DNA of 39,242 nucleotides from a virus (Duplodnaviria; Heunggongvirae; Uroviricota; Caudoviricetes). A program made the translations under genes and the position numbers. Positions 30,870 to 33,197 of the stretch are shown here, in pieces; position 1 is the stretch's first letter, and each line of letters starts with the position of its first letter. The stretch is from the IMG/VR virus record IMGVR_UViG_2734482547_000015; one strand, given 5' to 3'. The notes beneath the pieces are model-generated. The model had not been told where the DNA came from and searched no databases. It was given only the letters and a program-made list of their open reading frames with translations.

Positions 30870-31051
30870 TTACGCCTCCCGGAAATACGAATGTATATAC
30901 CGATGAGAAAATCCATAATAAACAGGAAGAGCGACATCCTGATAAAGAACCAAATGTCAGGCATAATGGACAGGTTTCCTGTAATCGCAAATATAAAACC
31001 AGTCCCCCACACTGGAACGATAATTGCGAAAAATACAAGTCTCTTTATCAT
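30866..31051 (-). CDS. Hypothetical hydrophobic peptide (61 aa, two predicted TM segments)
   Basis: MIKRLVFFAIIVPVWGTGFIFAITG...FFIRMSLFLFIMDFLIGIYI; ATGA overlaps with both neighbours. Confidence 0.45.
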   Translation of the reverse strand: MIKRLVFFAIIVPVWGTGFIFAITGNLSIMPDIWFFIRMSLFLFIMDFLIGIYIRISGRRK

Positions 31052-31599
31052 GGCGTTAACTCCCGTAATACAGCGTCCTCGGCGGTCCGTCGACGGTAAT
31101 AAACAGCGTGAGCAGAATGTTCAGATATGCCAAACTTTTCGCCAATTTCCCGGAATGACAGACGGCGAGGGTAATCGGAATCCCGTAGTGCACGTATAAG
31201 ACGAACATCCTCATCAGATATACGTGTGCCGGGGCGTAACTCACCGCACTTTGTTAATCCGGCACCAATCATTCCTGCGCGGCACCTGACAGAGTCTTTA
31301 TTACGTCCGAGATAATCCCCCATTTGCTGGCAGGTCATTGTCCGGGCATTTTTTCGGATAAATTTATCTTCATCAGGTGTAAATCGCGGTCGTTTATATT
31401 TCAGCAACTCCGGGTATGTACTGCGCAATACGCCAGTCCGGTTATATACGGCCCAGACACTTCTTTTTATTCTGGCGGCAATATCCTTAACCGGGGTGGA
31501 GGAATAAAGCGCAATCAGCAGCGCATCTTCTTCAGGTGTCCACGGGCGGACATGAGCAGGTGCACGACCTTTTCGCCCCATGGGTTGTAATTTCATCAT
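31048..31599 (-). CDS. Putative DNA-binding regulator with two Myb/SANT-like repeats and a C-terminal Mor/C-like HTH (183 aa)
   Basis: WTPEEDALLIALY and FTPDEDKFIRKNA repeats; C-terminal RLSFREIGEKFGISEHSAHAVYYRRR. Confidence 0.55.
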   Translation of the reverse strand: MMKLQPMGRKGRAPAHVRPWTPEEDALLIALYSSTPVKDIAARIKRSVWAVYNRTGVLRSTYPELLKYKRPRFTPDEDKFIRKNARTMTCQQMGDYLGRNKDSVRCRAGMIGAGLTKCGELRPGTRISDEDVRLIRALRDSDYPRRLSFREIGEKFGISEHSAHAVYYRRRTAEDAVLRELTP

Positions 31600-31602
31600 G
31601 CA

Positions 31603-32118
31603 TCACCCCCTGACTCGCTTTTCAGCAGCATAAAACTCATCAGACAGAATTTCGGTCATTTTCTGATTTGCGGGTTTTACACCGCACTGAAGATAAATCA
31701 CATCGTCAACGCAGAACCACTCCACAGGGCCATACAGGATTGCTGAGAAATCAATGCCCAGCCAGAACAACAGGGCATCGGTTCTGGCATACGTGACGGG
31801 CGAATATTCACGCCACAGACTGTTCAGTTCGTCAGAGGCAGTGCGCAGGGCTTTGGGAATGCGCGATGTGCGCGGCGTGCAGCTCCAGCCATTCGACGCA
31901 GTCGGTTTTCGCCATAAGTCGCGATGAAAAGGATATTTGTCCTCCGTAAAACGCAGTCCCTTAAAACAAAAACCACTGATACTGAATTCAAATACCGACC
32001 GGCACGCAACATTCAGCACGGCCTCAAGGCGTTTCGCCTCATCTTTTACCGTCTGGCAGTCCTGCTGGTATTTTTGCCACGCAGCCAGCGCGGAAGGGTT
32101 TGATGTTTTAAAGAACAT
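31603..32118 (-). CDS. Hypothetical protein (171 aa)
   Basis: Tightly packed in early operon; no recognisable motif. Confidence 0.5.
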   Translation of the reverse strand: MFFKTSNPSALAAWQKYQQDCQTVKDEAKRLEAVLNVACRSVFEFSISGFCFKGLRFTEDKYPFHRDLWRKPTASNGWSCTPRTSRIPKALRTASDELNSLWREYSPVTYARTDALLFWLGIDFSAILYGPVEWFCVDDVIYLQCGVKPANQKMTEILSDEFYAAEKRVRG

Positions 32119-32651
32119 TACGCCACCTCCGCAGATATCCCGGCAGGCGCTGCTGTCCGGTCAACAATCAGGTAGCGCAGAACACACGCGGTGATATTCC
32201 AGCCGCTTAAACCGCAGATGATGACACCCAGGCGAATGTCGATATACGCCATCACAAACTGGGGCACGCCTTCTTTCATGGCCTGCTCATCAACTTCAGC
32301 CACCACATAAACGGTTTCACAGGTCAGAACGCCCTGAGCAAATTCCCACGCCATCGACGGAATATCATGCCCCTCAATCCATGGCAGGGATTTTCTGAAG
32401 CTGCACCACTGAACATCATCAGCCGCAGATTCCTGTCTGCATTTGCGACGAATCGGCTGCACCGGGCGGGGACGCGGAATATCATAAAAACCGTTACATT
32501 CCGTCAGCACCCCGGCATCAACCGCATCACGCAGAAAATAAACCATGGAGGATGGCGGCATATTCATTTTTTCAGCCAGTACGCCGCAGGTCAGACGCCC
32601 GTAAATACTCAGCCAGTTTTTAACCCCTTCAAGCACTTTTGCATCAATCAT
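32118..32651 (-). CDS. Hypothetical protein (177 aa) with N-terminal HTH-like segment and hydrophobic C-terminus
   Basis: ...VLAEKMNMPPSSMVYFLRDAVDAGVLTE...; C-terminal YIDIRLGVIICGLSGWNITACVL. Confidence 0.5.
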   Translation of the reverse strand: MIDAKVLEGVKNWLSIYGRLTCGVLAEKMNMPPSSMVYFLRDAVDAGVLTECNGFYDIPRPRPVQPIRRKCRQESAADDVQWCSFRKSLPWIEGHDIPSMAWEFAQGVLTCETVYVVAEVDEQAMKEGVPQFVMAYIDIRLGVIICGLSGWNITACVLRYLIVDRTAAPAGISAEVA

Positions 32652-32654
32652 GAA

Positions 32655-33197
32655 TTATTCCTCCGTCAGCGCCACATATTCAGAATGTTTAATTTCCTGG
32701 CATTCTTCAGGAATACATCCGTTTATTTCCCTGCCATAAGCGCCCACTTTAAACACCACGCACAGGGCATCACGGGAGAACGAAGGGGTCCACCAGGAGT
32801 CCGTGTTAAACATGGAGGGGATTCTCATTACCCCCAGCTTTTCACAGAGCCAGACAAGGAAATCAGGACGCTTTCTTAACTCGCGTTCAGCGGCTTCAAT
32901 CATTGCGGCAATCGCCGGTCCTTCAGGGCATGACTCATCAGGTCTGGCTATAAAGCACTGTCCGCCACCGATAAAAGCCACATCATCGCGCTTACGCCAG
33001 CCCGCAGGCAGAGCACCGGCAAAATAAAACTCACTGATTCTGTCCATGGCGAACGGCTTTAAGCGCAATCCGGCAGCGCCTGTATTTTTCAGTAATGTCC
33101 GAAGAATACTGTTGCGTAGCGGTAAAACAGCCTGTTGATATTTGGTGAAATATTTATTTGTCTGCACACGGTCTAATTTGAAATAAAAATATGCCAT
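32655..33197 (-). CDS. Hypothetical protein (180 aa)
   Basis: AAGGAA Shine-Dalgarno; preceded by 97-bp AT-rich intergenic region. Confidence 0.5.
   Translation of the reverse strand: MAYFYFKLDRVQTNKYFTKYQQAVLPLRNSILRTLLKNTGAAGLRLKPFAMDRISEFYFAGALPAGWRKRDDVAFIGGGQCFIARPDESCPEGPAIAAMIEAAERELRKRPDFLVWLCEKLGVMRIPSMFNTDSWWTPSFSRDALCVVFKVGAYGREINGCIPEECQEIKHSEYVALTEE

Follow-up and report, generated by a model that had tools for sequence, protein, structure and literature searches.

The block at 31048-33197 of the window (the whole 39,242-nucleotide stretch of viral DNA that was analysed) carries a gene for a 183-aa protein in which a first-pass annotation had seen a regulator with a Mor/C-like helix-turn-helix (HTH). 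We asked whether this protein is related to the Mor and C activators of phage Mu, to which families it and its three neighbours belong, and how late activation may be arranged in a prophage with a single Mor/C-family gene.

The four-gene block and its neighbours

Analysis of the block revealed four consecutive, tightly packed minus-strand ORFs of 180, 177, 171 and 183 aa, which overlap or are spaced by no more than 4 nt. They are real but ordinary genes and belong to the accessory early set of a Mu-like prophage of E. coli. The block and its upstream flank contain the following features.

33295-33825: gam (Pfam Phage_Mu_Gam, 7e-42)
33222..33264, minus strand: conserved intergenic element with a hairpin, found by alignment, directly upstream of the block
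32655..33197, minus strand: DUF5420-related protein of 180 aa, without a homologue in Mu
32118..32651, minus strand: Mu gp11 homologue of 177 aa (Mup11, Pfam Gp11_C, PHROG 1949)
31603..32118, minus strand: Mu gp12 homologue of 171 aa (Mup12, PHROG 2314)
31048..31599, minus strand: predicted three-HTH DNA-binding protein of 183 aa (D5-like, PHROG 323)

The four genes had been placed between gam and an AT-rich block, in agreement with the position of gam and with the 41% GC of 30001-31000 on the other flank. Their description as uncharacterised was overstated, as the gp11 and gp12 homologues are clear, all four proteins match PHROG families (E <= 2.5e-53) and the E. coli counterparts of all four bear RefSeq names. 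The same gene order was found in Salmonella prophages and IMG/VR loci, and 233 of the 5426 complete E. coli genomes contain the region. On the plus strand, ORFs of comparable length, such as 32367-32879, overlap the block.

The 177-aa protein was 67% identical to Mup11 over its full length (E 2e-79), matched Pfam Gp11_C at 1.2e-39 with 135 bits (cut-off 27) and fell into PHROG 1949; these matches assign it to the Mu gp11 family (Gp11_C). The 171-aa protein was 54% identical to Mup12 over 168 aa (E 9e-67) and matched PHROG 2314 at 2.5e-83; a close E. coli homologue is named 'Mu-Gp12 family protein' in RefSeq and a Salmonella orthologue is recorded with PF26885, while a Pfam release without PF26885 gave no match. 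By similarity it belongs to the Mu gp12 family. The 180-aa protein scored 12 bits against Pfam DUF5420 (PF17457), below the cut-off of 26; its full-length homologues (37-40% identity) bear the name DUF5420 and its positional counterpart in Salmonella carries PF17457, which marks it, at the level of sequence similarity, as DUF5420-related; Mu has no counterpart. The genes for Mu gp9, gp11 and gp12 have been called largely uncharacterised (PMC3820752, PMC8705779), and a literature search returned no reported function for these three proteins or for DUF5420.

Alignment of the 33222..33264 element indicated that it is common to Mu and the Salmonella prophages irrespective of the flanking genes, with one compensatory pair in its hairpin; it is present in 65 IMG/VR loci. 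The 180-aa gene is inserted between this element and the gp11 homologue. Scans of the block interior for promoter and terminator signals gave nothing above chance, the eight proteins of the region gave no matches to the PADLOC defence models, NCBIfam returned nothing above cut-off and Rfam had no match over the whole window. The four genes would form part of an accessory ('semi-essential') early operon and are most likely cotranscribed with gam from the early promoter.

Domains and relatives of the 183-aa protein

The 183-aa protein is composed of three units.

31423..31551, minus strand: repeat 1, Myb/SANT-like, aa 17-59 (helices 22-31, 37-44 and 48-59)
31261..31392, minus strand: repeat 2, Myb/SANT-like, aa 70-113 (helices 75-84, 90-97 and 101-110)
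31090..31236, minus strand: domain 3, generic AsnC/sigma-r4-type HTH, aa 122-170 (helices 129-140, 149-156 and 160-169)

The AF2 model (pLDDT 82) consists of three three-helix bundles. The two W/F-T-P-E/D-E-D repeats described by the first-pass annotation were borne out, and comparison of one repeat with the other showed homology (hhalign 97.6%, E 4.9e-12); the HTH that it placed at the C-terminus was likewise supported by Pfam and by the AF2 helices. Domain 3 is weakly related to repeat 2 (hhalign 63%, E 7e-5) and matched Pfam HTH_AsnC-type at 7e-4; this model was matched in 14 of 15 family members. Repeat 1 matched Pfam Myb_DNA-binding at 5.8e-5 with 23.6 bits, just under the cut-off of 24.4, a value reached exactly by the relative P0024; the Pfam Myb model was matched in 10 of the 15 members (E <= 0.01). 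An E. coli protein 97-98% identical to the 183-aa protein is named 'SANT/Myb-like DNA-binding domain-containing protein' in RefSeq. With the whole-chain model as query, a fold search of the PDB yielded nothing at E <= 0.001, an outcome probably due to flexible linkage of the three small domains.

Myb repeats have three regularly spaced tryptophans each. The 183-aa family departs from this pattern, as only W20 is invariant, repeat 2 opens with F and the remaining Myb tryptophan positions hold no conserved aromatic residues. The repeats of the 183-aa protein nevertheless resemble the c-Myb R2R3/SANT repeats in being tandem three-helix units that open with W/F-T-x-E-E-D, and the family profile matched R2R3 (PDB 1H88) over residues 19-107 with E 1.7e-4; unlike c-Myb, the protein carries a third, non-Myb HTH behind the Myb-like repeats. 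The second-best PDB match of the profile (E 6e-4) was Cbp1 of Sulfolobus (2LVS), a CRISPR-repeat-binding protein that is likewise built of small tandem HTH units, three in number, but is an archaeal host protein and not a phage product. Cbp1 was also the top Foldseek match, at a non-significant level (E 0.047, TM 0.23-0.39).

Closer relatives were found among phage proteins. The 183-aa protein matched PHROG 323 at 2.5e-53 over residues 2-182, a family annotated as 'transcriptional regulator, D5-like', and the record of Mu gp9 bears the same label. All of Mu gp9 (Mup09, formerly E8; 99 aa) is homologous to residues 65-168 (hhalign 97.6%, E 4.6e-12), its first half corresponding to repeat 2 and its second half to domain 3, although no similarity was detected between the two proteins at the BLAST level. 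Both are products of early-region genes of transposable phages; gp9 is without the N-terminal Myb-like repeat and has two HTH units against three, and its gene lies upstream of gam whereas that of the 183-aa protein follows gp12. Profile comparison makes the 183-aa protein a homologue of Mu gp9 that is longer and encoded at another place.

In D5 of phage T5 (T5.118; 255 aa), residues 71-232 are collinear with residues 17-171 of the 183-aa protein and cover all three units (hhalign 96.6%, E 6e-10). Both are early phage proteins annotated with PHROG 323; D5 differs in having some 70 additional N-terminal residues, and T5 is a virulent phage that brings its own replication machinery. In the GenBank record of T5, D5 is described as a DNA-binding protein that is needed for DNA replication as well as late transcription and is involved in the shut-off of gene expression; these roles are annotations of T5 D5. 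The profile matches identify the 183-aa protein as a member of this D5-like family of phage DNA-binding proteins (PHROG 323; T5 D5, Mu gp9). The 183-aa protein, Mu gp9 and T5 D5 belong to a single family of early proteins with several HTH units, a link that offers a way into a Mu gene so far uncharacterised.

Mor/C-family proteins and the activation cascade

The proposed Mor/C-like character of the HTH failed every comparison made, the likeness being no greater than that to any HTH. The first-pass annotation had named such an alignment as able to refute its reading, and the outcome goes against that reading: the C-terminal 40-63 aa, aligned with the C-termini of Mor and C, scored 18-32, with a shuffle mean of about 21 and a score of 124 for Mor against C, and profile comparison with the Mor/C alignment gave an hhalign probability of 0.3%. 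Pfam Mor (PF08765) did not match the 183-aa protein at E <= 1 and matched 0 of 15 members of its family at E <= 0.01; no Mor chain was found among the PDB matches of the family profile at E <= 1. When the Mor/C HMM was run without speed filters over all six frames of the window, the 183-aa ORF was outside the best 20 matches, all of which except the true gene had E >= 1.2.

The features specific to the Mor/C family were also absent. Proteins of this family have about 100-150 aa, an acidic N-terminal and a basic C-terminal half, and an invariant GG...Y.P.G linker that joins the dimerisation and HTH domains (PMC2582627), and they carry terminal clamp-binding motifs of the form Qx[D/E][L/M]F or QPDLF (PMC12867686). 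The 183-aa protein is longer than this range and its N-terminal half has a net charge of +11, so that an acidic N-half is lacking; Q..[LM]F occurs nowhere in it, and it has no GGxxxYxPxG linker, which was found in the Mor/C gene of the window, in Mu C and in Mu Mor. Its likeness to Mor and C is confined to small size, phage origin and an HTH towards the C-terminus. Activators of the Mor/C family bind as dimers to a 16-bp dyad that is centred at -43.5 in promoters with no -35 element. With Pfam, the six-frame HMM search, hhalign, shuffled alignments, motifs and PDB profiles all negative, Mor/C kinship was rejected, and the 183-aa protein, judged by these comparisons, is not a Mor/C-type activator.

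The six-frame search located a single Mor/C-family gene in the window, in keeping with the earlier statement that only one is present.

29485..29508, minus strand: terminator-like hairpin with a T-run, found by scan, between the gemA stop and the Mor/C-family gene
29020..29442, minus strand: sole Mor/C-family gene (Pfam Mor, 4.9e-31), directly before lys

The product of 29020..29442 was 40% identical to Mu C (7.6e-37) and 27% identical to Mor (1.5e-14) and contains the linker GGRGYYLPVG and the motifs QMSMF and QPRLF; by these identities the gene is closer to C than to Mor. No homologues of Mup18-20 were found, and the Mu middle operon is absent. With one Mor/C-family gene and no middle operon the cascade cannot be organised as in Mu, which supports the earlier suspicion that it differs. 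The hairpin has the same stem in the prophages of E. coli and of Salmonella, between flanks that diverge. A TGTAAT hexamer seen by eye between the hairpin and the C-like gene lies at the right distance from a dyad; a Pm-like promoter at this site was considered and dropped, the hexamer and its spacing being unconserved in related prophages.

In this one-activator lineage, the single C-like protein most likely carries late activation. The gene that encodes it ends the early operon and lies behind a conserved terminator-like hairpin, so expression of this gene probably depends on read-through.

Among 65 related loci, the gp9 family was found in 32 and the 183-aa family in 19, and in none did both occur together. 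All five loci of the 183-aa type examined for activators had one (5/5) and all seven of the gp9 type had two (7/7), a pattern that amounts to a single lineage contrast and not to independent events. The enterobacterial Mu-like prophages sampled fall into two groups, one with the Mor-then-C two-step cascade and one in which a conserved hairpin precedes the only activator, a C-like one. Comparison of the two lineages offers a simple way to ask how a phage can do without the middle step of the Mu cascade.

Function of the block

The best explanation, to which we give a probability of about 0.6, is that the block is an accessory early block encoding a D5/gp9-like DNA-binding protein of 183 aa, and that late activation proceeds via the single C-like gene. 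The 183-aa protein most likely binds double-stranded DNA through several HTH units set side by side and would modulate transcription or replication in the early phase, as described for D5; its targets and timing are suggested by domain content and gene position. The multi-HTH, Myb/SANT-like architecture makes the regulator proposed by the first-pass annotation plausible, but a regulator of this kind is not special to this prophage, as Mu carries the homologue gp9.

The 183-aa protein may instead be a host-directed or general DNA-binding factor, and not a regulator of phage promoters, that silences host genes, coats the nucleoid, or assists or protects replicating phage DNA. We regard this as a possible but rather unlikely account. 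Its gene lies among dispensable early genes adjoining gam, a gene annotated in Mu as protecting from host exonuclease, and T5 D5 is annotated for both shut-off of gene expression and replication. Family members occur in unrelated prophage backbones, and there are long multi-repeat proteins in which the domain is fused to helicases; one member, 47% identical, is encoded beside a P2-type replication gene in a prophage of non-Mu type, so the role of the 183-aa protein need not be Mu-specific. The data suit this account and phage-directed regulation alike, and the lack of any PADLOC match argues against such a factor.

That a Mor/C-like HTH lets the 183-aa protein serve as the second activator missing from the middle/late cascade is quite improbable. 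The single Mor/C gene of the window and the co-occurrence of the 183-aa type with one activator and of gp9 with two would suit it, and with a conserved hairpin before the C-like gene and no conserved -10 element after it, a trans-acting factor could be needed. However, the hhalign, Pfam Mor and shuffle-level alignment results, together with the missing linker, clamp-binding motifs and acidic N-half, are against it; Mu has the homologue gp9 besides both Mor and C, and the co-occurrence reflects one lineage contrast. It is just as improbable that the three-HTH protein or another product of the block lets transcription pass or start beyond the hairpin, replacing Mor though unrelated to it. Least probable of all is that the four ORFs are mis-called frames or non-functional remnants, a reading for which the overlapping plus-strand ORFs could be cited but which the conservation data have effectively refuted: RefSeq calls the same minus-strand genes, their order is conserved, full-length E. 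coli and Salmonella homologues (37-75% identity) share many invariant residues, and the AF2 models are confident.

Little hangs on the block, whose accessory early genes are already catalogued and come from a common prophage of E. coli, and the proposed kinship with Mor/C was not borne out. Two minor observations concern the block and the late genes. Alignments of the DUF5420-related 180-aa protein with the gp12-like 171-aa protein were collinear but weak (hhalign E 0.04, probability about 1%), and paralogy of the two is possible and unproven. A candidate shared box, TCCCGCAAANCCNGCCCC, is situated upstream of both lys and I; these two sites, which served to derive the pattern, are the only ones at which it is found, so it counts as a lead and not as a result.

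Gene content and organisation of the block

Comparison with the Mu proteome by tblastn indicated that the window is a Mu-like prophage with its genes on the minus strand, in which homologues of ner, B, gam, gp11, gp12, gemA, one Mor/C gene, lys, the head and tail genes, gin, com and mom follow the Mu order; no homologues of Mup05-09, 13-15 and 18-20 were found in the window by this search, and the transposase was identified via Pfam. Four ORFs had been placed between gam and the AT-rich block by the first-pass annotation and were recovered there as follows, and RefSeq calls the same minus-strand genes in the E. 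coli counterparts.

Features of the early region and its surroundings
33222-33264, minus strand, post-gam element of ~43 nt in the gap separating gam from the block
31048-33197, minus strand, the block of four ORFs
32655-33197, minus strand, 180-aa protein
32118-32651, minus strand, 177-aa protein
31603-32118, minus strand, 171-aa protein
31048-31599, minus strand, 183-aa protein
29485-29508, minus strand, terminator-like hairpin with T-run, after gemA and before the C-like gene
29020-29442, minus strand, sole Mor/C-family gene (C-like gene)

The block is flanked by gam on one side and by 30001-31000 (41% GC, small ORFs) on the other. Neighbouring block genes are separated by a 3-nt gap or overlap by 1-4 nt, and a consensus scan of the block revealed no excess of promoter-like or terminator-like sites over shuffled sequence, as would be expected if gam and the block formed one operon; the block would be co-transcribed early. 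All four proteins matched PHROG families (E <= 2.5e-53) and none matched defence-system models. Of 5426 complete E. coli genomes, 233 contained the block in some form and 214 at >=80% coverage, with identity reaching 98%. It is an ordinary one, adding a new member to an already-catalogued family in a well-sampled prophage.

The 177-aa protein is the homologue of Mu gp11 (67% identity; Pfam Gp11_C, 1.2e-39) and the 171-aa protein that of Mu gp12 (54% identity); for one close homologue of the latter in E. coli, newer RefSeq annotation uses the name 'Mu-Gp12 family protein'. The 180-aa protein has no counterpart in Mu; its family is restricted here to E. coli and Salmonella, and distant members carry the name DUF5420. 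Its AF2 model was confident (pLDDT 89, pTM 0.81), and fold comparison returned no solved relative, the matches being unnamed phage proteins only. This DUF5420-related protein and the gp12 homologue could be aligned collinearly over nearly their full length without statistical support (hhalign E 0.04), and the two may be distant paralogues. The Mu genes gp9, gp11 and gp12 have been termed largely uncharacterised (PMC3820752, PMC8705779), and literature searches on their function and on that of DUF5420 found nothing newer.

Architecture and relatives of the 183-aa protein

Sequence analysis and the AF2 model (pLDDT 82) revealed three three-helix bundles (residues 22-59, 75-110 and 129-169) and a terminal helix. 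Units 1 and 2 are homologous (hhalign 97.6%, E 4.9e-12); between units 2 and 3 the relationship is weak (63%, E 7e-5). The Pfam Myb score was 23.6 bits, slightly below the 24.4 cut-off, and 10 of the 15 family members examined had a Pfam Myb match. With the family profile, c-Myb R2R3 aligned to residues 19-107 (E 1.7e-4), and Cbp1, a protein with three HTH units, was aligned as well (E 6e-4). An exhaustive profile search retrieved 9809 proteins at E <= 0.001, many of them long proteins with 4-9 such repeats, one sampled member also carrying helicase domains. The earlier description, Myb/SANT-like repeats followed by an HTH, is therefore right, and the RefSeq name of a 97-98%-identical E. coli protein agrees with it. 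The tandem HTH units probably bind DNA.

The first-pass annotation had likened the HTH to that of Mor/C, and this specific analogy, unlike the gene content, was wrong. Pfam Mor matched neither the 183-aa protein nor any of 15 relatives, hhalign of its family against the Mor/C alignment gave 0.3% probability, and a Mor/C HMM run over all six frames of the window with speed filters off matched 29020-29442 only, so that the gene is indeed single. In the C-terminal alignment proposed earlier as a check, the last 40-63 aa scored 18-32 when paired with the same end of Mor, of C and of the window's Mor/C protein, with a shuffle mean of ~21, while Mor against C scored 124; the best uncorrected p among the 12 comparisons was 0.01, and repeat 2 scored about equally. 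Mor/C activators have 100-150 aa, an acidic N-half and an invariant GG...Y.P.G linker (PMC2582627), as well as terminal clamp-binding motifs (PMC12867686), and all four features are missing from the 183-aa protein. All are present in the 29020-29442 product, in which QMSMF near the N-terminus and QPRLF at the C-terminus are close to the clamp-binding motifs recently found necessary for MuC function (PMC12867686).

The 183-aa protein instead matched PHROG 323, 'transcriptional regulator, D5-like' (2.5e-53). Mu gp9 is homologous over its entire length to residues 65-168 of this protein (97.6%, E 4.6e-12), and residues 17-171 are collinear with residues 71-232 of T5 D5 (96.6%, E 6e-10), so that the 183-aa protein is a three-unit version of the two-unit gp9, located after gp12 whereas gp9 lies before gam. 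According to the T5 record, D5 is a DNA-binding protein that both DNA replication and late transcription require and that takes part in shut-off; the 183-aa protein would have a D5-like modulatory role. A relative with 47% identity is encoded in a non-Mu prophage, where a P2-type replication gene follows two genes downstream, indicating that the module is not bound to Mu biology.

Related loci and the single activator

Sixty-five IMG/VR loci were gathered via the conserved element downstream of gam and their genes typed by local HMMs. The 183-aa family was found in 19 loci and gp9 in 32, never together (0/65). Where gemA through lys was covered, all gp9-type loci (7/7) had the order Mor-E18-(E19)-C, while all 183-aa-type loci (5/5) had one activator, nearer Mu C than Mor, directly before lys. 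The association suspected in the first-pass annotation is therefore real, but it reflects two lineages and is thus one contrast, not a series of independent events. A D5-like protein is present in both lineages, and replacement of Mor by the 183-aa protein does not follow from the association.

The window's single activator is 40% identical to Mu C and 27% to Mor. Prophages of the 183-aa lineage have AAATCCCGC-N6-GCGGGATTT and a T-run after the gemA stop, the stem being kept in all related one-activator prophages of E. coli and Salmonella while loop and flanks vary; between hairpin and start codon, neither a -10 nor its spacing was conserved among the related prophages compared. In Mu-type two-activator loci, gemA overlaps mor and this hairpin is absent; in Mu a hairpin follows mor, a position mirrored here. 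Expression of the C-like gene probably depends on limited read-through past this terminator, where the early operon ends, and the cascade would then have two steps instead of three. The lys and I upstream regions share the box T(C/T)CCGCAAA(A/T)CC(G/T)GCCCC, which by eye resembles the CCCGCACCT... stretch that precedes lys and I in Mu and is consistent with direct activation by the C-like protein.

Post-gam element and variable regions

The post-gam element (TTTTAATTATGGCGC-TCGCGTCAGGGGACTGCTTGCGCCTGAA) is near-identical in Mu, where it lies in the gam-gp11 gap, and in the Mu-like prophages of Salmonella and IMG/VR, whether gam or DUF3164 lies upstream and gp11 or DUF5420 downstream, although the coding DNA around it has diverged beyond the reach of megablast. 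Its hairpin (arms 33250-33254 and 33226-33230) shows one compensatory C-G to U-A change; Rfam gave no match.

In one Salmonella Mu-like prophage (locus L006, 7040-7987), a dATP/dGTP pyrophosphohydrolase-family gene (PF04447) lies between the 183-aa gene and gemA, which marks this variable stretch as a cargo hotspot; its counterpart in the window is the AT-rich block 30019-31051. A cargo gene that Mu lacks (684 aa; 2748-4802, minus strand), situated between gin and com/mom, encodes SASA carbohydrate-esterase (1.5e-13) and DUF6645 (7.4e-68) domains and may be a surface-polysaccharide deacetylase or lysogenic-conversion gene. Upstream of com, clustered GATC-containing repeats (ATCGATCG...TCGATCGAT; 1103-1380, minus strand) are similar to the Mu mom control region, suggesting that methylation-dependent com/mom regulation is conserved.
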